In this document: positions 3,748-50,046 of the stretch, piece after piece
How positions within the stretch are numbered: the first letter of the stretch is position 1
Layout of the letters: every line of letters starts with the position of its first letter
Source: Thermoplasmata archaeon
GTDB taxonomy: Archaea > Thermoplasmatota > Thermoplasmata > Lutacidiplasmatales > UBA184
NCBI GenBank assembly: GCA_021796385.1
Contig: JAJYXQ010000081.1
Coordinates: forward strand, 1,377 to 65,376
Reading direction: 5' to 3'
Length of the DNA stretch: 64,000 nt
Notes under the pieces: model-generated
What the model was told of the DNA's origin: nothing
Database searches by the model: none
Seen by the model: the letters and a program-made list of their open reading frames with translations, nothing else
Translations under genes and position numbers: made by a program

Positions 3748-6700
3748 ATGGTGATGGAGGCGCCTTTGCGGACACCGGCACTGGTCTTCGGGTTCTGCGT
3801 TGGCTTCCTCCTGCTTCTCCCGGCTGGGATGGGATTATACCCCGCCCTGTCCGCCGGTGTTTTGACGTCTTCCCACACGGCGTACACCCTCCCACAAAAC
3901 CTGCAGAAGCCGGACTCTGGGTTAGCCCCAACCCCCGGCGAACCCCTCCCCGTCTCATTCCCCGCGTTCGCAAGCGGTGGGTGCACGCCCATCAAAGAGG
4001 TACCGATCACGATCTCGAACTCACAATCGTCCCCGACCTCCTCCCCGTTCCAAGAGATGCTGACGATCGATTCGCTCTCGTATGGGGCGTACATCAATTC
4101 CGCCTGGTCAAACGTCGAGTTCCTCTACCCCTCCGGCACGGCCATCCCCGCATGGATCGAGTCCGGGGCCACCAACACGAGCACTGCGACCCTTGTCTGG
4201 CTCCGGTTGAACGCCATCCCGGCCTCGAGTGCGATCTCGATAGGGATGGTGATCTTCAACACCGGATGCAGCCTCCTTTCATCGACCGGGCCGCTCGGGG
4301 AGGCACCCCAGCTCTCTCCCACCTACGCGGCGTACGACGATGGGAGCCTGGTCTTCTCGTTCTACGACAATTTTGCCGGAACTGCCATTTCGGCCGGGTA
4401 CAAACTCATTTCGGGTGCCACGATCCAACAGAACAATGGCCTCAGCATCTGCTGCGGCATCGAGGGGGGGCTCATCTGGAGTACGGGGTACGCACCGCCC
4501 TTCGTGTTCGAAAGTGACGTCACCGGGATATCCGGACCCTACCCAGGGCTGCTGCTCCTGAGCGGCACCTCGGGGACTTCGCCCGGGTATGCTCTCGATG
4601 ACGATGCGGGAGGTTGCAGTTGTAGCGTGGGTGCAGGGGGGATCGATTCTGGAGTAAGCGGAACTTCCTCTCCTGTATTGTCCCTTTCCACCGGTATCAT
4701 GGGCGGCGCATGGCTGACGAGCTCGTCCCAGCTATGGTATGAGAACTATGCGACCTACACGGGGAGCGCAACCACCTACACCATCCCCGGCACTGAGTAT
4801 GTGGGATTCGGGCTCATCAATGCATCCTCCGCTTCGGCGAGCCTCTCGCTTCAATGGGCTCGCATCCGGGCGTACCCTCCGAACGGAGTGGCCCCGAGCA
4901 CGAGCTTCGGGTCCATGGTCCCCGCTCTCAGCGCGGGAGCGGTCTCGCCATCGGCCCCGACGATCGATGCCGGGCAGTCCCTCGTCCTCACGGCCAACCC
5001 ATCCGGCGGCATCCCACCCTATAACGGACAGTGGTACACCGGTGGAGCACCGAACTGCGGGAGCAATGTGGCCATCATGGGCGCGACCGCTGCCACACTC
5101 ACGGTCGCACCCACCGCCAATACGAGCTATTGCTACACGATCCGCGATGGAGGAGGGATCAGCGGAGCTTCTCCGCTGGACCCCGTTACCGTCCATCCGA
5201 CCTTGACCTCGGGCCAACCCATCCCCGCAGGAGGACGTATAGACCGTGGGCAGCAGATCACGCTCTCGATCAACACGACAGGGGGAACCCCCCCGTACTT
5301 CTACCAGTGGTATTCCGGGAACTCGACGAATTGTTCGAAGGATGTCGCCATCCCGGGAGCCCGGGGGGCGACCTTAACGGCGAGCCCAGTGACCGCCACG
5401 GATTTCTGCTATTCCACGGGCGACGCGTCGATAGGGACCCCGGTCGCGAATGCTTCTTCACCCGCGGTGCTCGTTCAGGTCAGTGCCTCCTTGACACCGG
5501 GCACACCATCGCCGGTATCCTGGGTCCTCGACATCGGACAGAGCGTCACCCTGAGCGCTTCCGCCTCCGGAGGCACTCCTCCTTACTTCTATCAATGGTA
5601 CACCAGCCTGCTGGGCAGTTCACCCTGTACTTCGGGAGTGCCTGTGGCCGGCGCTGTTTCCTCGACGCTCAATTTGACGCCGTCGGCCACAACCTACAAC
5701 TGTTTTGAAGTGAAGGATAGCGCCTCGACACCGGCTGCGAACGGCTCCTCGTGGAGCCAGATTGTGGTGAACCCTCGGCTACAGGCGAAGGGGCCACTGC
5801 CCGGCCCCGTGTCCCTCGATCCGGGACAATCGATCAATCTCAGTGTTTCTGTTACCGGGGGAACGCCCGGGTATGCTTACCAGTGGTTCGAGGACCTGAC
5901 CAACACCTCGAACTGCACTGGAGGAGTCCAGATCGCGGGGGCCACCAATGCAACGTACGCGGCCAAACCCCCTGGGACGGAGTACTACTGTTACGAAGTC
6001 ACCGACCATGCCAGCGTTCCGGTCTCGAACGCATCGAACTGGACCCTCGTTACGGTGAAGCCCCCCCTGGTGGCAGGTAGCATAACTCCGGCGAACCCGA
6101 CCCTACCTCCTGGGCAGTCTGTGCGCCTGATGGCATCTCCCTCCGGGGGGTCCCCTCCGTACACAATCTCATGGTACTCCGGAACCCAAGCGCTATGTTC
6201 CGGGGACAATGTGATTCCCGGCGCCCATGGACTGGACCTGAACGTGACACCATCTTCCACAACGTACTACTGCTATGCCGTGACCGACGCCTCCGCAGGG
6301 GTTCCCGCATCGCACATCCTTTCCCCGACCGACCCGGTCACCGTATCTTCTTCGCCCCTCGTCATTACTGGGCTGAAGGCCATCCCTGCGACGGTCCGGG
6401 TGGGACAATCGACCACGATCTCCGTACTGACCGCGGGTGGGACGGCTCCCTTCACGTATCGCTACGCCGGTCTGCCCTCCGGGTGCGCTTCTTCCGACAG
6501 CGCAAGCATCGGGTGCACCCCATCCACATCAGGCCACTTCAATGTCTCGATAACGGTGAGCGACAGCGTTGGAGCCACCGCCTCGGCCTCTACTCCCCTT
6601 AACGTAAGCCCGGCCTTGGCCCCACTTAGCGCGGCACTGATCTCGAACCGCGCGCAGGTGAACCCTGGCGAGCGCTTCGCGCTCATCATCGAGGTGCAAG

Positions 6701-7500
6701 GGGGCTTACCCCCCTATCGCTTCGTCTGGTCCCTCAATGGGACCAACGTCACCACCGCCCCGGATGCGACAGTATGGAACGTATCGCTCTTGCACCCAGG
6801 AAACTATACCTTCCGTGGCTTCGTCACGGATGCCCAGGCCGACCATACCCAGACGGTGCCGATCCATGTGCTCGTACTGGTGCCATCGTCCCCACCTCCG
6901 GCCACACCTTCCTTCCTTTCCAAAGCTCTCCCCTACATCGTCTTGGTGGTTGTGCTTGCCGTGATCGCTATCCTGGCCATGACGATGCTTGGCCGTCGAC
7001 GGCGACAGCGTAACGAAACCTTTCCGCCGATGCCCCCGGAATCGGCCACCGCGTCTCGGACCGATACCCCCGGACCGGCTCCCAACTTGGACTCTGGTGC
7101 GACACCGAGTTCCCCCGCACTAGTCACTCCATCTCTACCCAGTACTGGTCCATCACCCGCACCTGCCCCATCGGTGGCGACGCTAGGGTCGTCATACCCT
7201 CAACTTCGTTGCGTCCTTTGCGGTGGCCCGATGACCAGCAACCTCGTCTGCGAGAACTGTGGTTATGAACTGGTGCCGCAGACCCCTGCGAAGGAGGCGA
7301 CAACGAGCAAACCCTCCGAGGTCACCTCGGCCCCGCCTTCCACCGAAGCGGAACCACAACCGGAACCTCCGACCTCCCCGGCCCCCGACCCCGGACGACC
7401 CCCCCAACCGGTAGGTCCCTCGGGTGCGACGGATTCGGTCGAGGATATCACCCGGGAGCTCGAATCCTGGCTCAAGAAGACGCGCAAGCCGGGTCCCTGA
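3748..7500 (+). CDS. Large membrane-anchored surface protein: DUF2341-like N-domain, seven Ig/PKD-like repeats, TM helix, Pro-rich cytoplasmic tail with zinc ribbon
   Basis: Hydrophobic N-terminal signal; PLGEAPQLS/YDDGSLVFSFYDNF DUF2341-like motifs; repeats with GQS..L....SGG.PPY.YQW; TM near 6934-6993; CxxC-x9-CxxC at 7210-7260. Start (3748 vs 3697/3754) uncertain. Confidence 0.8.
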   Translation: MVMEAPLRTPALVFGFCVGFLLLLPAGMGLYPALSAGVLTSSHTAYTLPQNLQKPDSGLAPTPGEPLPVSFPAFASGGCTPIKEVPITISNSQSSPTSSPFQEMLTIDSLSYGAYINSAWSNVEFLYPSGTAIPAWIESGATNTSTATLVWLRLNAIPASSAISIGMVIFNTGCSLLSSTGPLGEAPQLSPTYAAYDDGSLVFSFYDNFAGTAISAGYKLISGATIQQNNGLSICCGIEGGLIWSTGYAPPFVFESDVTGISGPYPGLLLLSGTSGTSPGYALDDDAGGCSCSVGAGGIDSGVSGTSSPVLSLSTGIMGGAWLTSSSQLWYENYATYTGSATTYTIPGTEYVGFGLINASSASASLSLQWARIRAYPPNGVAPSTSFGSMVPALSAGAVSPSAPTIDAGQSLVLTANPSGGIPPYNGQWYTGGAPNCGSNVAIMGATAATLTVAPTANTSYCYTIRDGGGISGASPLDPVTVHPTLTSGQPIPAGGRIDRGQQITLSINTTGGTPPYFYQWYSGNSTNCSKDVAIPGARGATLTASPVTATDFCYSTGDASIGTPVANASSPAVLVQVSASLTPGTPSPVSWVLDIGQSVTLSASASGGTPPYFYQWYTSLLGSSPCTSGVPVAGAVSSTLNLTPSATTYNCFEVKDSASTPAANGSSWSQIVVNPRLQAKGPLPGPVSLDPGQSINLSVSVTGGTPGYAYQWFEDLTNTSNCTGGVQIAGATNATYAAKPPGTEYYCYEVTDHASVPVSNASNWTLVTVKPPLVAGSITPANPTLPPGQSVRLMASPSGGSPPYTISWYSGTQALCSGDNVIPGAHGLDLNVTPSSTTYYCYAVTDASAGVPASHILSPTDPVTVSSSPLVITGLKAIPATVRVGQSTTISVLTAGGTAPFTYRYAGLPSGCASSDSASIGCTPSTSGHFNVSITVSDSVGATASASTPLNVSPALAPLSAALISNRAQVNPGERFALIIEVQGGLPPYRFVWSLNGTNVTTAPDATVWNVSLLHPGNYTFRGFVTDAQADHTQTVPIHVLVLVPSSPPPATPSFLSKALPYIVLVVVLAVIAILAMTMLGRRRRQRNETFPPMPPESATASRTDTPGPAPNLDSGATPSSPALVTPSLPSTGPSPAPAPSVATLGSSYPQLRCVLCGGPMTSNLVCENCGYELVPQTPAKEATTSKPSEVTSAPPSTEAEPQPEPPTSPAPDPGRPPQPVGPSGATDSVEDITRELESWLKKTRKPGP
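4927..6880 (+). repeat. Seven tandem ~85-97 aa Ig-like protein repeats; the first five have a conserved Cys pair
   Basis: Recurring L.....P....D.GQS..L....SGG.PPY.YQWY......C.....I.GA...T....P.....YCY...D units in the translation. Confidence 0.8.
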
Positions 7501-7545
7501 CCGCTCACCCATCGCACGGGCTACGGGCCCTCCGTGGGCGAGTGG

Positions 7546-7551
7546 TTTATA
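7546..7551 (+). promoter_or_regulatory. Candidate TATA box upstream of top6B
   Basis: TTTATA about 42 nt before ATG 7593 in a GC-rich intergenic region. Confidence 0.4.
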
Positions 7552-7592
7552 CCCTGAGCCGTTAGCGGGACGGAGGAAACGGACCCACACGC

Positions 7593-9599
7593 ATGCCAGA
7601 CACGCGCTCGATTGCCGAGGAAATGGCGGCGAAGCAGCGGGAGATCTCCGTCGCCGAGTTCTTCGAGCGGAACCGCCAGGTTCTGGGTTTCGACAATCCC
7701 CAGCGGGCCACACTCACTACGGTGAAAGAGGCGCTGGATAACTCACTCGATGCGTGCGAGGAGGCCCGCATCATGCCGGAAGTCTCGGTCGAGATCGCCC
7801 GGATTGGCGAAGACCGGCTCAAGATCGCTGTCGAAGACAACGGGCCCGGGATTGTCCGGCGTGAGGTCCCGAACGTCTTTGGCCGACTGCTCTACGGAAG
7901 TCGCTTCCATTCCAACCGCCAGGCCCGAGGGCAGCAGGGGATCGGCATCTCCGCCGCCGTCCTCTACGCGGGGCTCACCACCGCCACCCCGGCCCACGTT
8001 ATCTCCAAGGTGAACGAAGCACCTACCGCCGTCGCCGTTGACCTTCTCATCGACACCGCGAGGAACCAGCCCAAGGTGATCCGAGAAGAACCCCTCCTCT
8101 GGGGCGATAAGAAGCAAGGTACGCGCATCGAGGTCACCTTGAAGGGGAAGTACCAGCGGGGCCGGGCCTCACCCTACGAATACCTCCGGGGAACGGCGAT
8201 CGTGAACCCCCACGCCCGATTGACCCTCGTGGAGCCCGATGGGACCCGGACGACATGGGAACGGGTCAGTGACGAGGCGCCGCGCCTTCCCCGAGAGATA
8301 CCCCCCCACCCCCACGGGATGGAGCTTGGGGAACTTTTCCAGCGACTCAAGGCCACGGAGGCGAAATCTTTGCAGGACTTCCTTACCCGGAGCCTTTCCG
8401 GGATCCTTCCCCGGACCGCCTCCGAGGTCTGCCGGGCGGCGGACCTTCGTGGGACCGAGAAGCCTTCCGCCCTAACCTCGGCCCAGGTGGAGCGGCTCCT
8501 CGAAGCGCTCCGCTCGGCCAAGGTCGCCCCGCCCCCGACGGACGGCCTCTCCCCTATCGAGCCGCTGCTCATCAAGCGGGGTTTGAAGAACGTCCTTGGT
8601 TCGATACGGCCCGAGTTCTATGCGAACCCGGTCACGCGCCCTCCCAAGGTGCACGCTGGCTGCCCCTTCATCGTCGAGGTCGGCCTCGTCTACGGAGGTG
8701 GCCTGCCGGCAGAGGAGCCCATCCAGGTGCTCCGGTTCGCCAATCGCGTCCCCCTGCTCTTCCAGCAGGGTGGCTGCGCCATCACGCAAGCCGTCGCCAA
8801 CGTCGACTGGCGCCGGTACGGTCTCGAGCAGAAGACCGGCACGATCCCGGTCGGCCCGGTCGTCCTCCTGGTTCACGTCGCCTCCACGAAGGTACCCTTT
8901 ACCTCCGAGGCGAAGGAGGCCGTCGCCTCCACCGAGGACATCGACCGGGAGCTCACATTGGCCATCCAGGCGGCGGCACGGTCGCTCTCGCTTCACATCT
9001 CCCGTCGCACGCGTCGTTCCCAGGCCACGGAGAAGTTCGCCATCATACGCAAGATACTCCCCCGCCTTGCCGAGAAGACGGCCACGCTCGTAGGAAAGCC
9101 CGTGCCGGATCTCACTCCGGTCATCACGAAGATCATGAACGTGGTCGCTGTGGAGCCCGTTGGACCTGAGGCAGAGGGGTTGCAGGGGTTGCGCCTCACA
9201 AACTACACGGCCTCGGAAAAGAAGGTGAAGCTCTTCCTCGAACTGCCATCCGAAGCGCTCGGCGATGGCTTTCGGGCGGAGCCCGCCCCCGAAACCGTGC
9301 AACCGGAACTGGGAAGGGCTTCCTGGGACACCTTCCGACTTCGGACCAATGAGCTTCGGGAGGTGGCCTTCACCTGGCCTCGAGGGGTCCGGCCGGATGC
9401 ATCAGACGTCGATGTATTCCTGGCGGGCGTCGATGAGGCGCACCTCCTCGGGGCAGACCCGCTCCCGGGGGACTGGGACGTGACACTGCCGAAGGAACTG
9501 GTCGAGGAGGCCCGGACCCTATCCTCAGAAGCGACTTCCGAGTCGGAGGTGGATTACGATGCCGCGGAAAGGAGCGCAGGGATCAGCGACGAAGAGTAA
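7593..9599 (+). CDS. top6B: DNA topoisomerase VI subunit B
   Basis: [17 protein letters not shown] motifs [34 protein letters not shown]; RFANRVPLL; [10 protein letters not shown]. Confidence 0.97.
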
Positions 9600-10698
9600 G
9601 GGCCCGCCCGTGGGAAAGGAGGAGGAGGCCCTCCGGCAGGCGATCGCGCTCGCCGGCAAGGTGTACGAAGAGCTGGATAGGGGAGAGGTCCCTTGGATGC
9701 GGCTGCCGCTCCGGACCAAGCAGAACATCGCCTTCAACCTCCGGGAAGGGGTCTGGAAGCTCGGGACCCTCACGGGTACCCGCTCAGCCCGAAAGATGGA
9801 TGGGGCCATGATGCTCCTCCGGACGTTCTGGATCGTCGACTTCATCCGGGAGATGGCCCGGGACCAGAAGACCTCCACCCTCCGGGAACTCTACTACATC
9901 TCCGAACAATGGGAAGAAGCGAAGTTCCACAGCGAGGATGAATCCAATCTCCTCGTCGAGGACCTCGAGGTGCTCACCGAAAAGCTCCGGGAGGACTTCC
10001 GGCTCCATCCGGAGGAAAACGGGGCTTCGGTCATCGGGGACCTGACCCTGACAGAGGTCAACCGGAAGGGGGTCCGGAAGGTGATCAACTGCCGGGACGA
10101 CGTGGGGGACGGCGGCTACCAGCTCCCGAACAATGTGGAAAAGGAGAAGATCACCTTCAAGTCCGCTGGGGCGAAGTTCGTCGTTGCCATCGAGTGCGGA
10201 GGCATGATGGACCGCCTTGCCGAGAACGGCTTTGATGAGCGCCACGACGCGCTCCTCGTCCACCTGAAGGGGCAACCCGCGCGCTCCACCCGGAGGTTCC
10301 TCAAGCGGGTCAACGAGGAGCTCAAGCTCCCGGTCATCGTGTTCACGGACGGGGACCCCTGGTCCTTCCGTATCTTCGCCTCCGTCGCCTATGGGGCCAT
10401 CAAGACCGCCCATCTCTCGAACTACCTCGCCACGCCCGGGGCCCAGTTCCTCGGTGTGACCGCGTCCGATATCGAGAACTACAAGCTCCCGAGCGACACC
10501 TTGAACGACAAGGACATCCGGGCGCTCAATGCCGAGCTCACCGACCCGCGGTTCAACGACCAGTTCTGGCGCACCGAGATCACCCTAATGCTTGAAAAGG
10601 GGCGCAAGGCGGAACAGCAGTCCCTCGCCAAGTACGGTTTGAACTACGTGACCGACAAGTACCTTCCGGAGAAGCTCACCGAGCTGGGCGTGTTGTGA
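9559..10698 (+). CDS. top6A: DNA topoisomerase VI subunit A
   Basis: STLRELYY (catalytic Tyr), [14 protein letters not shown] and DGDPW, KAEQQSL; overlaps the end of top6B. Confidence 0.97.
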
Positions 10699-11318
10699 AG
10701 CGCCCCGCTAGCCCCATCCACGCCCTGACCCTCCCGTGCCCCACCTGTGCCGAAGAGACGCCCCACCGGGTGCTCCACGTCAGCGCCTATCGGGAGGGCG
10801 GTTACCTTGCCGGGGTAGCGCGCTGTGGGAAGTGTCGCCAGACCCATCCCTTCGAGGTACGCCCGGCCACGGGCACCATACGGGTGGTCCTTTCCAAGGG
10901 GGCGCGGTCCCGGGTGGTCCGCGTTCCCCGAGTAGCCTTCCCGAACTTCGAGCCGGGCACGCGCTTTACGATCGAGGACGGGCAGGCCCACATCACCCGC
11001 ATCGAGCCCGAAGGTCCCCCTTCCCCAGAGGACGCAGGGAAGGCCTTCACCGTCTGGGCCGTGGCCGAAGGACCCGCCCGGGTCAGGGTGAGCCTGAGCG
11101 CCGGGGCCCGGACCATCCCGCTCACTGTGGAGCTGGACCCCGACACGCCGCTCCGTGTCGCCGGGAACTTGGTCGTGGGAAGCCGGAGATTGCGTATCTA
11201 TGCCATCCGTGTGGGGCGCAGGACCATCGACGACGAAGGGTTCACGGCACCGGCCGGGAGGATCGTGCGGGTCTACGCCCGCTCCGCTTGGACACCGCCC
11301 CCCGGTAACAACGATTGA
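10695..11318 (+). CDS. HVO_0476-like archaeal zinc-finger protein
   Basis: CPTC...H and CGKC..H zinc ligands, then two beta-rich repeats and a C-terminal IVRVYA; GTGA overlap with top6A. Confidence 0.75.
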   Translation: MKRPASPIHALTLPCPTCAEETPHRVLHVSAYREGGYLAGVARCGKCRQTHPFEVRPATGTIRVVLSKGARSRVVRVPRVAFPNFEPGTRFTIEDGQAHITRIEPEGPPSPEDAGKAFTVWAVAEGPARVRVSLSAGARTIPLTVELDPDTPLRVAGNLVVGSRRLRIYAIRVGRRTIDDEGFTAPAGRIVRVYARSAWTPPPGNND

Positions 11319-13162
11319 ACCGTGGTAAGCGGCACCCCCAGGCCTCGGGCGAGCTCCTTTTCGACGGCGGCGCGCCTCCTTTCATCCCCCGGGGAGATCC
11401 GGTAAAGCGTCCGCCCGTCCGGAGTCGCGAGGGCTTTCGGCGGCGCGCTCACGAGCAACCGCTCTCCTTCGAAGGTCACCTCACCTATGACGAGGGAGAT
11501 CGGAAGGTCGCGCATCACATGCTTCGAGCCATGGATGACCCACGAGCCCACGGGGACGTACTCGCCGCTCCCACCCGCCTTCGACACCTGGTCACCCCGG
11601 ACCCAAAAGGCGTCGGCGGATGCGTGCCCCGCTCGCCAAGCCTTCGAGAACGAGACCGCCCAGGCTCCGGCCTCCTCCAGCGACTCGGGGGTCACTTCCT
11701 TCCCCTGAGGGACCTTCACCACCACGCTCGGGGCGCCGTGTACGTCCGCATGGATGTAGTAGTCGGTCTCCTTCAGGTACCGTTTGACCACGCCGTCGTT
11801 CGACTTGGCATCCCGGCCGGCGACGACCGGGATCCCCTTGGAGGTGATGAACCACCGGGGAGCCTTCTCGAACCAGAAGTTCCGAGTCCGATGGACTGCG
11901 GCCTCGGCGGCCTTCCGGCGGGAAGTCGCCACCTTTCGCTTTCCTAACGTGGCGAGGGCGGATTCGGTCTGCTCCAGGGCCCGCCTCGCTCCTTCGAGCT
12001 TGGGGGCCTGCCGCTTCGCCTCCTCGTAGAGTTCCGTGGCGGCGGCCCGGGGTGGCTTGCGAGCGTTCAACCGGACCTTCTTCCCCTTCACTTCGATCTC
12101 CGCCTCCTCAGAATCCGGGATCTGGTCAAGGAGCGTCTTCACGCGCGCTTCTACCTCGGAATAGTTCGTCAGGATCGCATCCGCGGCGTCGCGCAGCTCC
12201 TTGGCCATCCCTTCGAGCAGCGTGATCCCTTCCATTTGCTGCGTCCGGAGGCGCTCGAGGCGCTCCCGCTCGATCTCCTCCGGGGGTTTAACTTGGGCGG
12301 TCTTCGGGTGCGCGGCAAAATACTGCCGCGCCGCCTCGGAAAACGTGGGAACCTCCGTGCATGCGACCCCGGGCCGGTCCCGCCAGCGGGCGGCGGCGAA
12401 CGGCTGCACGTCGATCAACTTCCCGTTCTCCGAATAAAGGTACCCCTTGGGGTCCGTCCCCACCTCGGCAAGCACCCCCTTCCAGGATCCGAGGACCTTT
12501 TCGGCCGTTCGGTCCGGCTCTAGGCTCGCCGGGCTCGCGGGATCGAGCCCGGCCCGGGCCACGACCTCTTCCGCCAAGGGTCCTCCCATCGAAAGACGGG
12601 CGGCCAATGTTGTCACTATGCTCGTCTTGGATTGGGAAAGCGCCGTGGCAATCTCCGTCCGGGTAAGGGCGAAGGGATCGCGGCGGGAGGGAGGACGCAT
12701 GTAAGCCTCCCCGGGTCGAAGGGTTCGATGGGCCCACTTCCGCTGGGTCAGGATAGCCACGATCGTCCCTTCCCGCACCACGAGCAGGTTCCCATCCCCG
12801 AAGAGTTCGATCACGAGGAGCCGGGGCTTCTCCTCCATCGAGCGTTGGAAGGCGAGCTCAAGGTAACGCTCTCCCCCAGGCTGCTCGATGCCCACGAGAG
12901 GGAGCCCCGAAAGCCACTTGCGCACGTTCTGGGAAAAGGAGCCGGGTTCGGGGCGATGGGCGACCTCGCCGGTCGTCAGGGCGAGGAACCGACCGGGTTC
13001 CACCAAGAGCCGTGCCTTTTCCCGTTCCGGGACCCGGAAAGTGAACAGGAAGCTTCCCCCTTCGACGTCGTACGCCTTGTCCAACCAACATTTCCCCAGG
13101 GACTGTATCGCCCGGGCAACGGCTTGGATATCCACGGATGAAAAGGCATCCTTCGCTTCCAT
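11273..13162 (-). CDS. rqcH: Ribosome rescue protein RqcH/Rqc2 (NEMF/FbpA, NFACT family)
   Basis: SSVDI N-terminus, LLVIELFGDGN, coiled coil, FWFEKAPRWF, AGRDAKSND, YIHADVHGAPSVVVK, GEYVPVGSWVIHG. Confidence 0.92.
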   Translation of the reverse strand: MEAKDAFSSVDIQAVARAIQSLGKCWLDKAYDVEGGSFLFTFRVPEREKARLLVEPGRFLALTTGEVAHRPEPGSFSQNVRKWLSGLPLVGIEQPGGERYLELAFQRSMEEKPRLLVIELFGDGNLLVVREGTIVAILTQRKWAHRTLRPGEAYMRPPSRRDPFALTRTEIATALSQSKTSIVTTLAARLSMGGPLAEEVVARAGLDPASPASLEPDRTAEKVLGSWKGVLAEVGTDPKGYLYSENGKLIDVQPFAAARWRDRPGVACTEVPTFSEAARQYFAAHPKTAQVKPPEEIERERLERLRTQQMEGITLLEGMAKELRDAADAILTNYSEVEARVKTLLDQIPDSEEAEIEVKGKKVRLNARKPPRAAATELYEEAKRQAPKLEGARRALEQTESALATLGKRKVATSRRKAAEAAVHRTRNFWFEKAPRWFITSKGIPVVAGRDAKSNDGVVKRYLKETDYYIHADVHGAPSVVVKVPQGKEVTPESLEEAGAWAVSFSKAWRAGHASADAFWVRGDQVSKAGGSGEYVPVGSWVIHGSKHVMRDLPISLVIGEVTFEGERLLVSAPPKALATPDGRTLYRISPGDERRRAAVEKELARGLGVPLTTVQSLLPGGGVQAERA

Positions 13163-43594: not shown

Positions 43595-44284
43595 TCAACC
43601 CGTGGAGCCACCGAGCCCGGCCGTTTCTCGGGACGAGTTGGGCTTCCCGGTGATACGATCCCTAGGAACGCGATCTGGACCCGGTTTCGTCCCTCGGGAA
43701 CGTAACGTGTCGAGCCAGAGCTCCATCATAAGCAAGAGCACCCCGTCCGTAATGATCCCGGCTATCGGGACGTACCAGGCGAAGCTGTAGAAGAGCCAGC
43801 CGGATTCTCCCCCTAAGACCGCCAAATACCACGTCGCTGCTGAGGTGGCGAGTGGGGTGACCACCGTAAGCATCCCGATGAAGATGACGACAAGCCAATT
43901 CGCCCGCATCCCTTTCGGCTGATCTCTCCATGTTCGAGATATCGCTAAGGTCACGGCGGCCCCGCCTCCGATGGCGGCCAACAACCCACCGAACGCTATC
44001 TCAAAGGCGCTGAGTGCGGGGATCGTCAACTGGCACCAAGGGCTCAGTACCATAAGGATCGGAAAATCCCACCATATCAACTGACCATTCCAATACTGGA
44101 TGGAGAACTGAATGGTATCCCCGGTCGACGGCAAGAAAGAGAGATACAACCCCAACCAAGCCGAAAGGATGGCATAGAAGATCCATAGCCCGATGGCGAG
44201 GAGCCACCCGTGATGTTCACGGAGCTCGCCTCGGACTTCCCGTAACGCGAACGATCGCAGGATGTAACTCCCACTTGACCTCAT
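43595..44284 (-). CDS. Hypothetical multi-TM protein downstream of the cupredoxin
   Basis: About five hydrophobic segments from ATG 44284; the longer ORF call overlaps the cupredoxin and is unlikely. Confidence 0.65.
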   Translation of the reverse strand: MRSSGSYILRSFALREVRGELREHHGWLLAIGLWIFYAILSAWLGLYLSFLPSTGDTIQFSIQYWNGQLIWWDFPILMVLSPWCQLTIPALSAFEIAFGGLLAAIGGGAAVTLAISRTWRDQPKGMRANWLVVIFIGMLTVVTPLATSAATWYLAVLGGESGWLFYSFAWYVPIAGIITDGVLLLMMELWLDTLRSRGTKPGPDRVPRDRITGKPNSSRETAGLGGSTG

Positions 44285-44387
44285 GGCAAGGAACGGACCA
44301 TGGATCTTCCGGGTAAAACGTACCGCTTGGACGGACCACCGCCAACGAGGGCGTTCGTATCGATAGGAAGCGATGACGAAGGTCGGT

Positions 44388-45131
44388 CTACCACGTCTGA
44401 GGGGGTTTCTCGCCTGGGGCCACCGAGGGAACCGCTGAGGAGGCTGGCTCCTCCTCTTCCTCATCCGGAGAAACGCGGGGAGGTTTGTGGCTGCGGGCAA
44501 CAAATATGACGGCCACGATGAGGACCCCGGCCGTGCTGATGCCAAGGGCATCCAGTTGAAGTTTGTTCAGGCCGAAGGTGGATGCAGGGGAACTGGGAGC
44601 AGGAACTCCGATGTACACGTGCCCGAACATCCCTTGCTGAAAGTGTCCGGGTACTTCACAAATGAAGGTGAGCACTGCATGGGTTGGCAACTGAACCGGG
44701 GGCGTGCTCTGGGGAGAACCGGCAGAGATCTCTGGGACGATACGGGCGAGGGGAGGATATTTCACGAAGTACGAGTCCACCTGTTGCGGTGTCCAGTTCG
44801 GAGAAAGGGTAGTGTCGTTCGATATCGAATCCAAAGTGAAGTTGTGCGGAGTGTAGCCGATCACTCCCACGACGAACACCACGGGAGCTTGGGTCGGGAT
44901 GCTCACCACGTCCGGGTCCCAAGTGAGACCCGAGGTGCCATTGAGAAAGACCTCCCAGTACCCGCTCGAGCTGTTGAGAGGATGCACAAAGTGTTCGTAC
45001 GAGTCCGACGGAGTATTTCCCAAGGAGAGGGGACTCCCCTGACCGGTTAGCGACAAGGTAATCACAAAAAAGAGAACGGAGGCCAACAGGACCATTCCCC
45101 CGACCACGGCCCGGTTGCTCCCTACGCGCAT
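44388..45131 (-). CDS. Membrane-anchored type-1 blue copper protein (cupredoxin; sulfocyanin/rusticyanin-like)
   Basis: PHNFTL His, CEVPGHFQQGM (C-x4-H-x4-M); N-terminal signal/TM and C-terminal TM; TATA about 25 nt upstream of ATG 45131. Confidence 0.88.
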   Translation of the reverse strand: MRVGSNRAVVGGMVLLASVLFFVITLSLTGQGSPLSLGNTPSDSYEHFVHPLNSSSGYWEVFLNGTSGLTWDPDVVSIPTQAPVVFVVGVIGYTPHNFTLDSISNDTTLSPNWTPQQVDSYFVKYPPLARIVPEISAGSPQSTPPVQLPTHAVLTFICEVPGHFQQGMFGHVYIGVPAPSSPASTFGLNKLQLDALGISTAGVLIVAVIFVARSHKPPRVSPDEEEEEPASSAVPSVAPGEKPPQTW

Positions 45132-45154
45132 CGCGGCGCCCATTCGAACGCAGG

Positions 45155-45212
45155 TATATAACAACTTGGAATTTGACCGTCTAAGACCATTGAATTTCGG
45201 AAAGACTTAAAT
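45155..45212. promoter_or_regulatory. Divergent promoter pair (cupredoxin / oxidase operon)
   Basis: TTATATA on - strand at 45155-45161; AAAG..TTAAAT on + strand at 45201-45212, each about 25 nt from a start codon. Confidence 0.6.
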
Positions 45213-45234
45213 CCGGGCCCCTCTCCCACGCGCA

Positions 45235-48200
45235 GTGATGAACAGGGCGCATCTCCGCTGGCGGCCCCGATTGGCGGCGGTCTTCGTCCTTTTGTCTTTG
45301 CTCCTCTTGCTGTTTGCCGTCCCCGGCCTCCCCGCCGGGATCGCATTGGCCAGTTCAAACGCTCCCAACCCGTGCGGACACATCCTGAGGGCCGCGAACG
45401 GTACGGCCGGGCCCGAGGTGGAATGCTTCCTGAACGCGACCGCCGGTTTAACCTTCGACCCGAACCAGCTTGTAGTACCAGCAAATTCCACCATAGTGTT
45501 CCACGTCGGGGATGTGGGTGGTATCCCCCATACCTTCACCTTGGATAACGTTAGCAACGACTCAACCCTCGCTTCATGGACCCAAGCCCCGAACACTGTC
45601 TCCCCTGCCCAGCTCTACAAGTACTTCGCCTCGCACGAAGCAGTGAACCTCACGTTGGATGGGTCCGCGACCGGGAACACATCTTCGCCTGTGACCCTCC
45701 CGACCGCGCATGGGGTCTACTACTATGTCTGCCTTGTTCCGGGACACTTCCAGAGCGGGATGTATGGGGAACTCGTGATGGGTCTTCCCAAGCCCATTCC
45801 TTCAGTGGCCCCGACCCTCAACGTTCCCGTCCAGTTTGGGATTGTAGCCTTGGCCTTCGTCGCCCTCGCAGCCGCCGCCATCATCATATTCAATGCTCAG
45901 AGCTTCGGAGGGATTCGACGGGGCTTCGTCAAGCTCTTTGAGACCGAGCAGGCCGACCCCAACAGCCTGCGCTCCTGGCTATTCACCACAGATCACAAAC
46001 GCATAGGGATACTCTATCTTGCGACGTCCATTTTCTTCTTTTTCATGGCCGGTAGTTTCGCCCTCATGATGCGGACGCAGCTCTCGGTCCCCAACAACAC
46101 ATTTGTCAATGCTCAGGTCTACAATCAACTTGTGACGATGCATGGGCTTCTCATGGCCCTGTTCGTCCTCTCCCCGCTCGGATTCGCCTTTGCGAACTAC
46201 ATCATCCCGCTTCAGATGGGAGCAAAGGACATGTCGTTCCCCCGGCTGAATGCCCTCAGCTATTGGTTCTTCGCCTTAGGGGGCTTCCTCCTTCTTTCAG
46301 GGATATTCCTTCCAGGGGGGGCTGTCTCCTCCGGCTGGACCTTGTACGCACCGCTGAACGAGACCCCGTACCTCCCCCAGCCTGGGATGGATGTGGGTAT
46401 CCTTGGGATACTCATGCTGTGCATTTCTGTAGTCCTCGGAACCACCAACATCTTCACGACAGTGTTCCGTCAACGCGTCAAGGGGTACAAGCTCCTCGAC
46501 CTGCCGATGTTCACCTGGGGAATCCTGTTCACGCTGATCATGGCTTGGATTGCGTTCCCCGACCTCATGGCTGCCGTCGTCCTCCTCATGATGGACCGCG
46601 CCATCGGCTCAGAGATCTTCCTCGCCAACGTGGGGGGAACGCTCCTATGGCAACAGGTCTTCTGGTTCTTCGGACATCCCGAGGTCTACATTCTCATCTT
46701 TCCGGCGTTCGGGGCCATGTATGACATCGCGAGCGTCTTCTCTGGTCAACCCATCTTCGGGAAACGCTACGTGATCTACTCGATGGCCGCCATCGTGATC
46801 CTGAGCATGGCGGTCTGGCTCCATCACATGTTCATGACCGGTGTGAACCTGGGATGGATCGACTTGCAGTCGTTCACCACACAGGCGATTTCCATCCCAT
46901 CGGATACGCTCGTCCTAGGACTCATCTTCACTATGGCCGGAGGAAACATTCGGTACAAGTCCCCCATGCTTTTCACGCTGGGAGCGATCCCGCTGTTCAT
47001 CATCGGCGGCATCACCGGTGTTCTAACGGGCGTCCCGGCACTCGATGTGGGCTTCCATGGGACCTATTGGGTCGTCGGGCACTTCCATTACATGCTGGCG
47101 GGTACCGCGCTCTGGGGGCTCACCGCAGCCACATATTTCTACTATCCGAAGGTCACTGGCCGGATGCCCAACGAGAACATCGCCAAAGTCCACCTCGGAT
47201 TCGCCGCATTTGGTGTGAACATGATCTACTTCCCGATGCTCCTGCTCTACAACATGCCCCGCCGGTACTTTGTCTACTCCGCGAACTTGGGCTTCAATGA
47301 CCTCAACCTCATCTCCACCATCGGGGCGTACATCTACGCCACTGCGCAACTGATCTTCCTCGCCAACCTCCTCTATAGCTGGAAGCGGGGGCAAGTGGCC
47401 TCGCGCAACCCCTGGCAGGCCTGGGGGTTCGAATGGCTGACTTCTTCCCCACCGCCAGCGTGGAACTTCGATGGGGACCCCACCATCCGTGGCACCCGGA
47501 TGTCCGTGGAGCCTTCCATGGAGCACCCCCACCCTCCCCATCTGAGCAAGTGGCCGATGTTCGTAGGAGTGGGGTCGTTCCTTTCACTCTTCGGGCTCGT
47601 AGTGCAGCTTTACTGGGGGAACCCGATCCTCTTGGTGCTGGGGCTAGTCCTCGTCATCCTTTCGATGGCGGGTTGGGCATGGGAGGATTTTGCCGACCGG
47701 ATCCCCGAAATGGATCACGGCACCCGGGAGCTCTGGCCCTTCGGGTCGCTCTCCAATGTGCAGTTCGGCACCATCGTCTTCATCAGCGGAGACCTTGCCT
47801 TTGTGGGCGCCATGGTAGGCGCATACGCCTTCACCACGTGGCAAGCCGCGTACTTCAGCGACCCGCTCCTCTCGCTCGCCGCTTCCGGCAGCACGCTCCT
47901 CACCGAGCTCATCCTCCTTTCCTTGGTCGGCAGCATTGCCCTGGCGATGGTCGGTCTCTACGGTGCACGTTCGCGGAACCTGGCGCTCGCCGAAACTGGA
48001 ATTGTGGGTACCATCGTTCTCGGGGGCCTTTTCCTGGTGGCATCGGTCCTGAACTGGCAAACCCTCACAAATTCCGGGATGGGAATGTCCACGGTGGGGG
48101 TCAACCTCACAACCTCCATGTTCTACGATTTCTCGATCATCCACATTGTCCACGTCGTGGCGCTCATCGGGGTCATGGGGTATTTTGCCGTCCGGGTGCC

Positions 48201-48345
48201 GAAGCTCTTTGAGTTACCGGACCACTCCATGGGCCCCGATGGCAATAAGGCAGGATCCCCCTTTGATGGGTTAGCCGCCGCAACGTACCTGTGGGTGTTC
48301 ATTGCGGCCTTCGGGATAGTTTTGACGGCCGTGTTCTTGATGTGA
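45235..48345 (+). CDS. coxA: Fusion: type-1 cupredoxin + heme-copper oxidase subunit I + subunit III (A-type)
   Basis: CLVPGHFQSGM; TDHKRIG, TMHG, DMSFPRLN, WFFGHPEVY, WLHHMF, VGHFHY, MPRRY; subunit-III-like region from SKWP onward. Confidence 0.92.
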   Translation: MMNRAHLRWRPRLAAVFVLLSLLLLLFAVPGLPAGIALASSNAPNPCGHILRAANGTAGPEVECFLNATAGLTFDPNQLVVPANSTIVFHVGDVGGIPHTFTLDNVSNDSTLASWTQAPNTVSPAQLYKYFASHEAVNLTLDGSATGNTSSPVTLPTAHGVYYYVCLVPGHFQSGMYGELVMGLPKPIPSVAPTLNVPVQFGIVALAFVALAAAAIIIFNAQSFGGIRRGFVKLFETEQADPNSLRSWLFTTDHKRIGILYLATSIFFFFMAGSFALMMRTQLSVPNNTFVNAQVYNQLVTMHGLLMALFVLSPLGFAFANYIIPLQMGAKDMSFPRLNALSYWFFALGGFLLLSGIFLPGGAVSSGWTLYAPLNETPYLPQPGMDVGILGILMLCISVVLGTTNIFTTVFRQRVKGYKLLDLPMFTWGILFTLIMAWIAFPDLMAAVVLLMMDRAIGSEIFLANVGGTLLWQQVFWFFGHPEVYILIFPAFGAMYDIASVFSGQPIFGKRYVIYSMAAIVILSMAVWLHHMFMTGVNLGWIDLQSFTTQAISIPSDTLVLGLIFTMAGGNIRYKSPMLFTLGAIPLFIIGGITGVLTGVPALDVGFHGTYWVVGHFHYMLAGTALWGLTAATYFYYPKVTGRMPNENIAKVHLGFAAFGVNMIYFPMLLLYNMPRRYFVYSANLGFNDLNLISTIGAYIYATAQLIFLANLLYSWKRGQVASRNPWQAWGFEWLTSSPPPAWNFDGDPTIRGTRMSVEPSMEHPHPPHLSKWPMFVGVGSFLSLFGLVVQLYWGNPILLVLGLVLVILSMAGWAWEDFADRIPEMDHGTRELWPFGSLSNVQFGTIVFISGDLAFVGAMVGAYAFTTWQAAYFSDPLLSLAASGSTLLTELILLSLVGSIALAMVGLYGARSRNLALAETGIVGTIVLGGLFLVASVLNWQTLTNSGMGMSTVGVNLTTSMFYDFSIIHIVHVVALIGVMGYFAVRVPKLFELPDHSMGPDGNKAGSPFDGLAAATYLWVFIAAFGIVLTAVFLM

Positions 48346-48361
48346 GGATGGGAGGGAAACA

Positions 48362-49180
48362 ATGGCAGGTACAGTGAACGGAAAGGCCCGAAGGGACCTC
48401 TTGGCCGGTGGCCTCATCATGCTCGCGGCGACGCTCATCCTCCTGTGGTTCGTCGCCAATCTCTACTTCGACCGCTGGGGGATCGGCGGGTTCCAAATGA
48501 GTCCTTTCCTTCCGTACCCGGTCGTGAGCGGGCCCTCGCTCAACTATGACCATTGGCTGGGCCTGTTGCTGGTGTACCTCGCCTTCGGTATCCCGATCGC
48601 CGTGGTCGCAATTGGGGAGGTCTTCTTGGTCGCATGGAAATGGCGCGCGCGACCCGGCCATCCCGCCCCTTCAGATGGTCTCCAAGAGAATATCATCCCG
48701 ACTTCGCGCCGAGGAAAGGGGTCGCGGACTCTCCTTACCGTCAACATCCTGGTAGCCGTCCTCCTCTTCAGCCTCGCGGTCTACAGCCTACCCATCAACT
48801 CGCTTTTGCTCGGGCAGCCCCCGGACCCGCCGAACACCCTCACCGTCAGTGTGAAGGCCTTCCAGTGGGGCTGGACATTCATCTACCCCAACGGGTACAG
48901 CTCGACGGGCTCCGCCATCCTTCCGACCAACGAGGAGATCGTCTTCAAAGTCTGGAGCACCGACGTCATGCACGACTTTGCCATCCCCAGCCTCAAGGTG
49001 AAGGTTGACGCCTACCCGGACCACAACAACACCGCCTGGACCATCATCTACCAGTCGGGAAGTTACGAGGTGTTCTGCATGGAGCTCTGCGGGGTTGGGC
49101 ATGCCTACATGACCGCCACGCTGACGGCGGAGCCGCAGGCCCAGTTCGCCCAATGGTACAATTCGACCGGGACCACCTGA
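48362..49180 (+). CDS. coxB: Heme-copper oxidase subunit II with CuA centre
   Basis: AFQWGWTFIYP, STDVMHDF, CMELCGVGHAYM; GGAGG RBS. Confidence 0.93.
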   Translation: MAGTVNGKARRDLLAGGLIMLAATLILLWFVANLYFDRWGIGGFQMSPFLPYPVVSGPSLNYDHWLGLLLVYLAFGIPIAVVAIGEVFLVAWKWRARPGHPAPSDGLQENIIPTSRRGKGSRTLLTVNILVAVLLFSLAVYSLPINSLLLGQPPDPPNTLTVSVKAFQWGWTFIYPNGYSSTGSAILPTNEEIVFKVWSTDVMHDFAIPSLKVKVDAYPDHNNTAWTIIYQSGSYEVFCMELCGVGHAYMTATLTAEPQAQFAQWYNSTGTT

Positions 49181-49983
49181 AGAACGCTTTCCGGGGGGAA
49201 AACCTTCCCCTTACCGCGACCATTCTTTTCTTCTTCGCTGCCGCGGGCATTCTGATCTGGATCGCCTACGGGCAACACCTGATCTTCAACACCTTCGCGG
49301 CCGCCTCCTCGGTCGTGTTCTTCGCGGCCACATACCTCGTCCTTCGGCAGACCGTGATGAAAGGAGCGTTCGAGCGGTTCGCGCGTTATGTGCGCAGACC
49401 GGTCGGCGCAATCATTTTCGTCGGCTACCTCGCCCTCCACTACTTCCTCTACGGGTTGTTCTTGGAAAGGCTCCTCATCGGGTTCTACGGAGATGTGCCC
49501 GGTGGACCCCCCGGGGGCTCCCCGCTCTATCTCTCCACAGGTCTAGTGTATCCCGAGTTCCCCGTCGGTGGGTTCTTCAGCATCCTCTCAAACCCGTCGG
49601 TCACCCTCTACATATCCTCGAACTACGGCATCACCCTGATCCCCTTCAGCTTCTTCCTCGGGTTCCTTATCGCAGTCTTGGTGATCGCCAACATCGAAGT
49701 CGTCTCGGATGTTTCGACCTGCCCCGCTTCCCGGCGGCGTCGTGCGTACGTCGTGCTCCCCTCCCTGGGCATCGCTGTGGGTAGCTCTTGCTGCCTATCT
49801 CTTCCCGTCCTGGTGACGCTCGTGATCCCGGCGGCGGGGGCGCTCTCCTACACCACGGCCGCCTCGTACCTCGCCTTCTTCGCCTTCCCGGTCGCCACCG
49901 CGGTCGCGCTCATGTTCAATCTCGAACATTCCCGTGCGATCCTCCGGCAAGTGGCACCACGCATCCCGGGCCCCACAGGGTGA
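49153..49983 (+). CDS. Hypothetical multi-TM protein in the oxidase operon with vicinal Cys (GSSCC)
   Basis: About six TMs; STCP and GSSCCLSLP; overlaps coxB by 28 nt. Confidence 0.7.
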   Translation: MVQFDRDHLKNAFRGENLPLTATILFFFAAAGILIWIAYGQHLIFNTFAAASSVVFFAATYLVLRQTVMKGAFERFARYVRRPVGAIIFVGYLALHYFLYGLFLERLLIGFYGDVPGGPPGGSPLYLSTGLVYPEFPVGGFFSILSNPSVTLYISSNYGITLIPFSFFLGFLIAVLVIANIEVVSDVSTCPASRRRRAYVVLPSLGIAVGSSCCLSLPVLVTLVIPAAGALSYTTAASYLAFFAFPVATAVALMFNLEHSRAILRQVAPRIPGPTG

Positions 49984-50046
49984 CCCGCGGTCGGCCCATG
50001 GATTGATATCGCCACCGAGCTGTCCACTCCTCCGGAACGGGCCTAC

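Follow-up and report, generated by a model that had tools for sequence, protein, structure and literature searches.

The window considered here is a stretch of 64,000 nucleotides from a Thermoplasmata archaeon (assembly GCA_021796385.1, contig JAJYXQ010000081.1, positions 1,377-65,376 of the forward strand). It contains a gene for a heme-copper oxidase in which a type-1 (blue-copper) cupredoxin domain forms the N-terminus of a combined subunit I and subunit III (I+III) polypeptide. The gene is followed by coxB, which encodes subunit II, and by the gene for a polytopic membrane protein, referred to here as Y. A free cupredoxin paralogue and another membrane protein, X, are encoded upstream on the opposite strand (Table 1). 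The fusion occupies a single uninterrupted frame (45235-48345, plus strand), and the 1036-residue open reading frame named in the original prediction, which was made from the sequence of the window, is present as described. Residue numbers below are counted from the GTG at 45235, the first codon of this frame. The database copy of the protein begins one codon on, at ATG 45238, giving 1035 residues, and this ATG is likely to be the true start of the gene.

The order of domains in the fused protein is signal peptide, type-1 cupredoxin, proline-rich tether, an extra transmembrane helix (TM0), a basic linker, subunit I (COX1) and a COX3-like domain. The Pfam SoxE profile (PF06525) matches residues 78-182 with 31.1 bits against a gathering cut-off of 21, and the Copper-bind profile scores slightly below its cut-off. 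Subunit I is covered by Pfam COX1 (PF00115; residues 256-700, E-value 2e-126) and by NCBIfam CtaD (TIGR02891; residues 248-750, E-value 8e-164), the latter at 546 bits, under its equivalog cut-off of 670.75. The NCBIfam aa3_CtaE profile gives a weak match to the C-terminal part (residues 841-982, E-value 9e-6), and residues 248-983 align with the I+III chain of the Thermus caa3 oxidase (2yev_A). Hydropathy analysis indicates a signal-like segment at residues 13-31, TM0 at 201-219, the helices of COX1 and seven helices in the C-terminal domain. Profiles, hydropathy and the 2yev_A alignment agree with one another and bear out the anatomy first proposed, from signal peptide through cupredoxin, transmembrane helix and subunit I to subunit III.

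The AxA motif predicts cleavage of the signal peptide before S40, and the signal regions of the five fused proteins show no conserved twin-arginine motif. The tether has an identical length in all five, the alignment there being free of insertions and deletions, and the motif ADPNSLRSW of the linker is kept in every fused protein. The predicted topology places the cupredoxin outside the cell, with TM0 leading back to the cytoplasm and into the N-terminus of subunit I. The direction of TM0 is assigned because the linker at residues 220-247 is rich in Arg and Lys, in keeping with the positive-inside rule. Seven of the ten N-x-S/T sequons of the fused protein fall in residues 55-150, and such a cluster in the cupredoxin domain is as expected for an extracellular archaeal domain. 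The topology argument of the original prediction (cupredoxin out, one helix in, cytoplasmic N-terminus of subunit I) is coherent with both the hydropathy and the sequons.

Table 1. Position and basis of the features of the fused oxidase gene and its neighbours, in window coordinates
Feature	Residues	Position	Strand	Basis or remarks
Signal peptide (predicted)	1-39	45235..45351	+	Basic n-region, hydrophobic core 13-31, A-L-A ahead of S40
Cupredoxin domain (predicted extracellular)	40-185	45352..45789	+	SoxE match, ligand alignment, sequons
Pro/Thr-rich tether, LPKPIPSVAPTLN	184-196	45784..45822	+	Joins last beta-strand to TM0
Extra helix TM0, outside to inside (predicted)	197-219	45823..45891	+	Hydropathy peak 201-219; model helix 197-219
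Basic cytoplasmic linker, TM0 to COX1 N-terminus (predicted)	220-247	45892..45975	+	R/K-rich sequence
A-family heme-copper oxidase subunit I	248-765	45976..47529	+	COX1/CtaD profiles, invariant ligands, 8hcr_F alignment
Subunit III-like domain, plus stop codon	766-1036	47530..48345	+	CtaE match, 2yev_A alignment, 7 predicted helices
CoxB, subunit II		48362..49180	+	Pfam COX2 (PF00116) E-value 5e-17; TIGR02866 E-value 8.5e-39
Protein Y, 276 residues, polytopic membrane protein		49153..49983	+	Cys motifs STCP, GSSCCLSLP; overlaps coxB end
B recognition element (BRE)/TATA-like element, GGAAAGACTTAAAT		45199..45212	+	About 26-31 nt upstream of ATG 45238
Free cupredoxin paralogue, divergent		44388..45131	-	Signal, type-1 cupredoxin, C-terminal transmembrane anchor, acidic tail
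Protein X, membrane protein, no family match		43595..44284	-	Likely start MRSSGSY at 44284

The type-1 copper ligands of the cupredoxin domain are H99 (45529-45531), C166 (45730-45732), H171 (45745-45747) and M176 (45760-45762). The first histidine lies within a PHTF sequence (45526-45537), and the C-x4-H-x4-M motif is located exactly where it had been predicted, at 45730-45762. All four residues align with the ligands of auracyanin B and are invariant in eight homologues (five fused and three free). Among solved structures the N-domain matches auracyanin B (E-value 9e-6), auracyanin A (E-value 2e-5) and also rusticyanin. A His-Thr pair is found at the first copper ligand of the fused domain, and His-Thr after the first copper ligand has been described for Ferroplasma sulfocyanin (PMC10654088). 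By its profile scores the N-domain is classed as sulfocyanin-like and not as an orthologue of sulfocyanin/SoxE. It is predicted from its ligand set to be loaded with copper.

In the oxidase core, the heme a ligands are H303 and H618, the heme a3 ligand is H616, the CuB ligands are H481, H530 and H531, and the cross-linking tyrosine is Y485. The six ligand histidines and Y485 are invariant across an alignment of 42 sequences. Both motifs of the D-channel are retained, DMSFPRLN at residues 332-339 and GHPEVY at 480-485, and E483 is invariant. The Lys of the K-channel is replaced by Leu in helix VIII (46894-46911), where IPSDTLVLG stands against VPTGIKFFN of the actinobacterial CtaD 8hcr_F. This Leu is atypical and leaves membership of the A family, as assigned by hidden Markov model, unaffected. 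By its profiles and ligands the fused protein is classed as an A-family subunit I with a SoxM/caa3-style I+III fusion. Among the relatives of 750-823 residues, most from P0156 down carry COX3 (PF00510) together with PF00115, and the nearest list PF00115 only.

Subunit II is encoded separately by coxB, and its CuA motif is complete: H204 is followed by C239-M-E-L-C-G-V-G-H-A-Y-M250 (49076-49111), so that the full H-x(34)-C-x-E-x-C-x3-H-x2-M pattern claimed for CoxB is present. The conserved Trp motif of electron entry, QWGW, lies at 48863-48874. No cytochrome c domain was found in CoxB by Pfam or NCBIfam profiles, and the oxidase operon contains no CxxCH. Across the window, frames of at least 100 residues contain CxxCH only twice, in a TFB-like motif and in the frame at 4374, which was not looked into; within that limit the earlier view that no cytochrome c is encoded here stands. 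CoxB is about 45 residues longer than that of the closest unfused oxidase (272 versus 228 residues). By eye, its N-terminus (48362-48780) seems to have three hydrophobic segments before the CuA domain, where two are canonical.

The continuity of the fused gene was examined in independent sequence data. Contigs from four mine-drainage and sediment metagenome runs, belonging to two studies, span positions 45596-46400 with no insertion, deletion or joint. One of these contigs, of 36 kb, is identical to the window over 45100-46400. No stop or frameshift is present between the domains in the contigs of these four independent runs. No Met lies between residues 207 and 251, and the window gene has no ATG, GTG or TTG in that interval. 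This rules out a separately initiated COX1 in the window gene and upholds the earlier view that a missed internal start for subunit I is unlikely.

The architecture is also conserved. A search with the N-terminal 250 residues, limited to full-length proteins, returned four 90%-identity clusters of 1034-1041 residues, in which the N-domains are 100, 63, 52 and 53% identical to the query. Different assemblies supplied the fused loci. In two of them the gene order matches that of the window (Rad50, Mre11, free cupredoxin, fused oxidase, CoxB, Y, TatD and thymidylate kinase), and the fourth (L026) has a different gene context. All fused relatives keep the copper ligands, the length of the tether and TM0. 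The original prediction had regarded separate genes in close relatives as a point that would count against the fusion. Relatives down to 52% N-domain identity stay fused, whereas more distant relatives do encode the parts separately.

A further fused relative is L001 (JAKBKR010000084.1), of 96% identity and from a species-representative genome. Compared with L001, the N-domain has a ratio of non-synonymous to synonymous substitution rates (dN/dS) of 0.107, with 18 synonymous and 6 non-synonymous codon differences, and COX1 has 25 synonymous and 2 non-synonymous codon differences. Because of this low dN/dS, the N-domain is seen to be maintained by purifying selection. L001 is filed as 'MAG: bacterium isolate DX1.bin10'. 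This label is probably uninformative or wrong, since the genes of the window (Topo VI, Rad50/Mre11 and the TFB-like motif) and every other related locus indicate an archaeon of the Thermoplasmata.

The distribution of the fusion is narrow. A HMMER scan with residues 1-330 against 1.84 billion representatives at 50% identity yielded a single fused protein, the one that stands for the cluster described here. The next-best matches are free proteins (P0005-P0010) of 231-262 residues that are 39-48% identical and consist of a signal, a cupredoxin and a C-terminal transmembrane anchor. These are followed by ordinary COX1 N-termini that begin at residue 2-30 of their proteins. Other COX1 matches with a long N-terminal extension were considered, and none is a recognisable type-1 cupredoxin fusion: they are COX2-COX1 or cytochrome c-COX1 fusions, fragments, or proteins whose extension has no Pfam match (P0103, P0045, P0038 and P0115). 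P0115 (727 residues) has a signal, an unrelated extracellular domain of about 180 residues with GGCNCHG and no Pfam match, one transmembrane helix and COX1 without COX3; its sequence is rich in Ile, Asn and Lys. Among species-representative genomes L001 is the only fused relative. The candidates L002-L023 were rejected as other cupredoxin proteins, with stop-to-stop frames of up to 1048 residues and no COX1 domain. The fusion is rare, its four species-level clusters all falling within a single 50% cluster.

A search with the COX1+3 part gave four fused proteins at 65-100% identity, then a gap to 48% or less. At that level stand 116 unfused I+III proteins of 583-823 residues, all but one of them at least 750 residues long. 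Unfused relatives with a named source are archaeal, with one exception. In a maximum-likelihood tree the fused proteins form one clade (support 100/100) nested within a 17-member clade of unfused sequences, and the fusion has a single origin. In a tree of cupredoxin domains the fused domains group with the free proteins P0005-P0010, and a long, fully supported branch separates them from the family of the neighbouring paralogue. A recent tandem duplication of that paralogue is therefore ruled out as the source.

Both the free proteins P0005-P0010 and the neighbouring paralogue end in the same C-terminal anchor, and the unfused COX1 relatives have no TM0. In the simplest history, the gene for a free cupredoxin with a C-terminal anchor would have fused once, in frame, with the front of a I+III oxidase gene, and the anchor would have turned into TM0. 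Among these relatives no free cupredoxin gene was found immediately ahead of one for an unfused COX1, P0005-P0008 being on short contigs or in unrelated contexts. Nor is a cupredoxin encoded near the closest unfused oxidase (locus L029).

Upstream of the fused gene, the BRE/TATA-like element is a putative promoter, as judged from the archaeal consensus. Its core AAA..TTAAAT, followed by CTCCCACGC, is kept in alignment upstream of the start in all five of the five fused loci. Because this conserved element is spaced 26-31 nt from ATG 45238, transcription would start ahead of the cupredoxin domain, which suggests a leaderless or short-leader transcript.

The divergent free cupredoxin is about 31% identical to the fused domain. 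Its translation probably begins at M12 (45131) and not at the TTG at 45164, and a TATATA box is present at 45155-45160. Protein X is listed in the window as an open reading frame of 318 residues from 44551, with 44284 the more probable start. Its homologues, of about 208-234 residues, adjoin the oxidase genes in three other fused loci, all on the minus strand (L026, 6184-6849; L024, 5226-5852; L027, 6339-7043). Protein Y has no Pfam or NCBIfam family match and is encoded after coxB in every fused locus. The homologues in L024 (11922-12779), L026 (5288-6133) and L027 (11911-12744) have 285, 281 and 277 residues and carry STCP and the motif variant GSSCCLxLP. Y is absent after coxB in L029, and it could be an assembly factor or an additional subunit of the oxidase. 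No Sco, PCuAC or Cox11 gene is recognisable by profiles in the oxidase operon.

The most divergent fused locus, L026, carries further respiratory genes. After the oxidase operon, positions 7020-11774 encode a TatA-like protein, a secreted protein of 121 residues, a Rieske protein, cytochrome b, two small membrane proteins and CtaB (UbiA family). From its genes this island appears to hold the content of a SoxM supercomplex with SoxE moved into SoxM. The 12.5-kb contig of L026 has no free cupredoxin, so the fused domain is the only candidate carrier on it.

It is probable that the fused protein is a SoxM-type I+III oxidase in which a sulfocyanin-like domain, tethered covalently, brings electrons to CuA. 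In this mechanism, a Sec-type signal peptide would export the cupredoxin to the outer face of the membrane, where the 13-residue proline-rich tether would keep it near the membrane surface. TM0 would then return the chain to the cytoplasm, into a normal N-terminus of subunit I. The tethered type-1 copper would accept single electrons from an upstream donor, most likely a Rieske/cytochrome b complex as in SoxM, with Fe(II) at the cell surface also possible. From the type-1 copper, electrons would pass to CuA of the separately encoded CoxB, then to heme a and to the heme a3-CuB centre. The path from type-1 copper to CuA is proposed because the complete His2-Cys-Met set is a one-electron centre and CuA is the only recognisable point of entry. 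Both this step and the identity of the upstream donor are inferred.

A more speculative extension can be put forward tentatively. The fused enzyme may form the end segment of a respiratory chain that lacks a diffusible carrier, with the type-1 domain swinging on its tether between the Rieske/cytochrome b complex, or Fe(II), and CuA. One polypeptide and CoxB would then provide an all-copper entry path that needs no soluble carrier and none with an anchor of its own, and TM0, X and Y might constitute a new docking or assembly module.

Several observations weigh against electron transfer from the fused cupredoxin to CuA. The sulfocyanin equivalog profile TIGR03094 scores 30.5 bits, far from its cut-off of 168.4. 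An AlphaFold2 model of residues 1-272, built on an alignment of 8 sequences, has a mean predicted local distance difference test (pLDDT) score of 42. A full-length AlphaFold model from 42 sequences gives a pLDDT above 90 for COX1+COX3. In both models residues 1-240, and with them the putative Greek-key beta-sandwich of the cupredoxin, have a pLDDT of 25-50 and offer no usable geometry between type-1 copper and CuA, the poor prediction of the N-domain being due to the shallow alignment. Three of the four fused lineages also have a gene for a free cupredoxin beside the fused one, and for this reason the fused domain need not be the sole or main donor. Profiles detect no Rieske or cytochrome b gene in the window, and the flanks of L024 and L027 have none either. 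None of the sampled sequence words was found in three metatranscriptome runs of the same study, which against positions 44300-50000 yielded only a 32-bp piece of another organism's HPEVY region.

The rival readings concern what feeds the fused domain, whether the chain stays whole, and whether the cupredoxin serves the oxidase at all. It is conceivable that the domain is an Fe(II)-oxidising entry module, which would make the fused enzyme a self-contained Fe(II):O2 oxidoreductase and leave the free paralogue and the Rieske/cytochrome b complex to serve the uphill branch. This reading differs from the tethered SoxM-type oxidase in the upstream donor only. The sequence occurs in mine-drainage and sediment metagenomes, Ferroplasma sulfocyanin co-purifies with an aa3 (I+III) oxidase in an Fe(II)-oxidising complex (PMC8280799, PMC13741234), and the His-Thr pair of the fused domain is as in Ferroplasma sulfocyanin. 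However, a sulfocyanin gene is no predictor of iron oxidation among Thermoplasmatales, since Picrophilus and Cuniculiplasma carry one yet do not oxidise iron (PMC5155288, PMC10354927), and the N-domain is related to true sulfocyanin only distantly. An iron donor is accordingly held as doubtful. That the gene is an artefact of assembly or gene calling, in which a sequencing error or contig chimerism ran two neighbouring genes together, is highly improbable. The same open frame is found in contigs of four runs from two studies, the architecture recurs with no stop in four diverged homologues of other assemblies, and purifying selection acts on the N-domain.

Cytochrome b/c1 FbcH of Bradyrhizobium is a precedent for a polyprotein that is cleaved, and a similar fate of the fused chain would yield a membrane-anchored cupredoxin and a normal I+III subunit, equal to the SoxM or Ferroplasma complex. 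The free proteins P0005-P0010 have exactly this cupredoxin and transmembrane build, and the first part of the cytoplasmic linker looks like the tail of P0005. Cleavage is nevertheless unlikely, as the junction would be cytoplasmic after an outside-to-inside helix and out of reach of signal peptidase, has no conserved cleavage-like motif, and is followed by a linker that all fused proteins conserve (ADPNSLRSW). It is also distinctly unlikely that the cupredoxin is a passenger for which subunit I serves as a membrane anchor only, with a role such as copper handling for CuA/CuB assembly or electron exchange with a partner other than CuA. The lack of a recognisable Sco, PCuAC or Cox11 in the operon would fit such a role, as would the constant company of X and Y, which are Cys-containing or polytopic membrane proteins of no known family. 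The ligand sets of PCuAC and Sco differ from the His2-Cys-Met type-1 site, however, and the complete, invariant set of the fused domain is a redox site rather than that of a chaperone. Electron input is the likelier role, given that the domain is fused to the oxidase itself and that sulfocyanin is already known as an oxidase subunit.

To our knowledge, electron entry into archaeal heme-copper oxidases without cytochrome c is represented by few biochemical preparations (SoxM and the Ferroplasma aa3-sulfocyanin complex) and by no structure. In a 1:1 covalent fusion, the ratio of blue-copper donor to A-type oxidase and the closeness of the two are both fixed. The fused enzyme is for this reason attractive for cryo-electron microscopy and for the kinetics of intramolecular electron transfer from type-1 copper to CuA. 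The origin of the fusion is traceable, in that a family of free anchored cupredoxins would have given the domain and TM0, once, within a clade of unfused I+III oxidases. Within the limit of a narrow clade of four species-level clusters, the fusion is a marker, among uncultured Thermoplasmata from mine-drainage sediments, of aerobic respiration that may be linked to iron. As the original prediction supposed, no oxidase with this fusion is described in the literature searched, of which coverage was incomplete and which included a survey of archaeal fusion proteins and genome papers on the Thermoplasmatales. In the Thermoplasmatales literature the I+III fusion and a free sulfocyanin are both described, each as separate proteins.

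Sulfocyanin is known as an integral part of the SoxM complex of Sulfolobus and of the aa3 complex of Ferroplasma (PMC3750248, PMC8280799, PMC13741234). Similar to SoxM of Sulfolobus acidocaldarius (SoxEFGHIM), the present oxidase has an A-type I+III fusion and a separate CuA subunit II. In SoxM a sulfocyanin-type copper protein links Rieske/cytochrome b to CuA with no c-type cytochrome, a role that the fused domain would share. The genes for Rieske, cytochrome b and CtaB stand beside the oxidase in L026, as in SoxM, but Rieske/cytochrome b genes are not adjacent to it in the genome of the window. A difference is that SoxE is a separate polypeptide, whereas the I+III subunit of the present oxidase begins with its cupredoxin, and an extra helix connects the two.

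The complex of Ferroplasma acidiphilum comes from the same archaeal class and an acid-mine habitat, and it likewise combines a I+III fusion with a stand-alone subunit II. According to the work of Castelle et al. 2015, as relayed in PMC8280799 and PMC13741234, its sulfocyanin is tightly bound to the oxidase and electrons enter from copper to copper. The association there is non-covalent, unlike that of the fused protein, and iron oxidation is a feature of the Ferroplasma complex but only a possible one of the present lineage. The COX1+3 sequences are also distant: the nearest relatives listed are at most 48% identical, and those with a name include none from Ferroplasma, Acidiplasma or Picrophilus.

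The auracyanins A and B of Chloroflexus (2AAN, 1QHQ/1OV8) and rusticyanin are the best matches of solved structure, with the four ligands aligned. The auracyanins are membrane-anchored blue-copper carriers of respiration or photosynthesis, and their anchor is at the N-terminus. In contrast to the fused domain, auracyanins and rusticyanin are free proteins, and the similarity is low (E-value about 1e-5).

The original prediction described the enzyme as a cupredoxin analogue of the caa3 oxidases. The principle of tethering and the I+III fusion are indeed held in common with caa3 of Thermus thermophilus (2YEV), where a covalently tethered carrier feeds CuA, but the nearest systems are SoxM and the sulfocyanin-aa3 complex of Ferroplasma. 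In caa3 subunit II bears the carrier, a haem c domain, at its C-terminus, whereas here the carrier is a type-1 copper domain on the N-terminus of subunit I, attached through an added helix. The CxxCH domain on subunit II that is the hallmark of caa3 is absent from this oxidase. The principle of a tethered carrier was already known, and the novelty of the present oxidase is the covalent joining of a known type of carrier to known oxidase parts.

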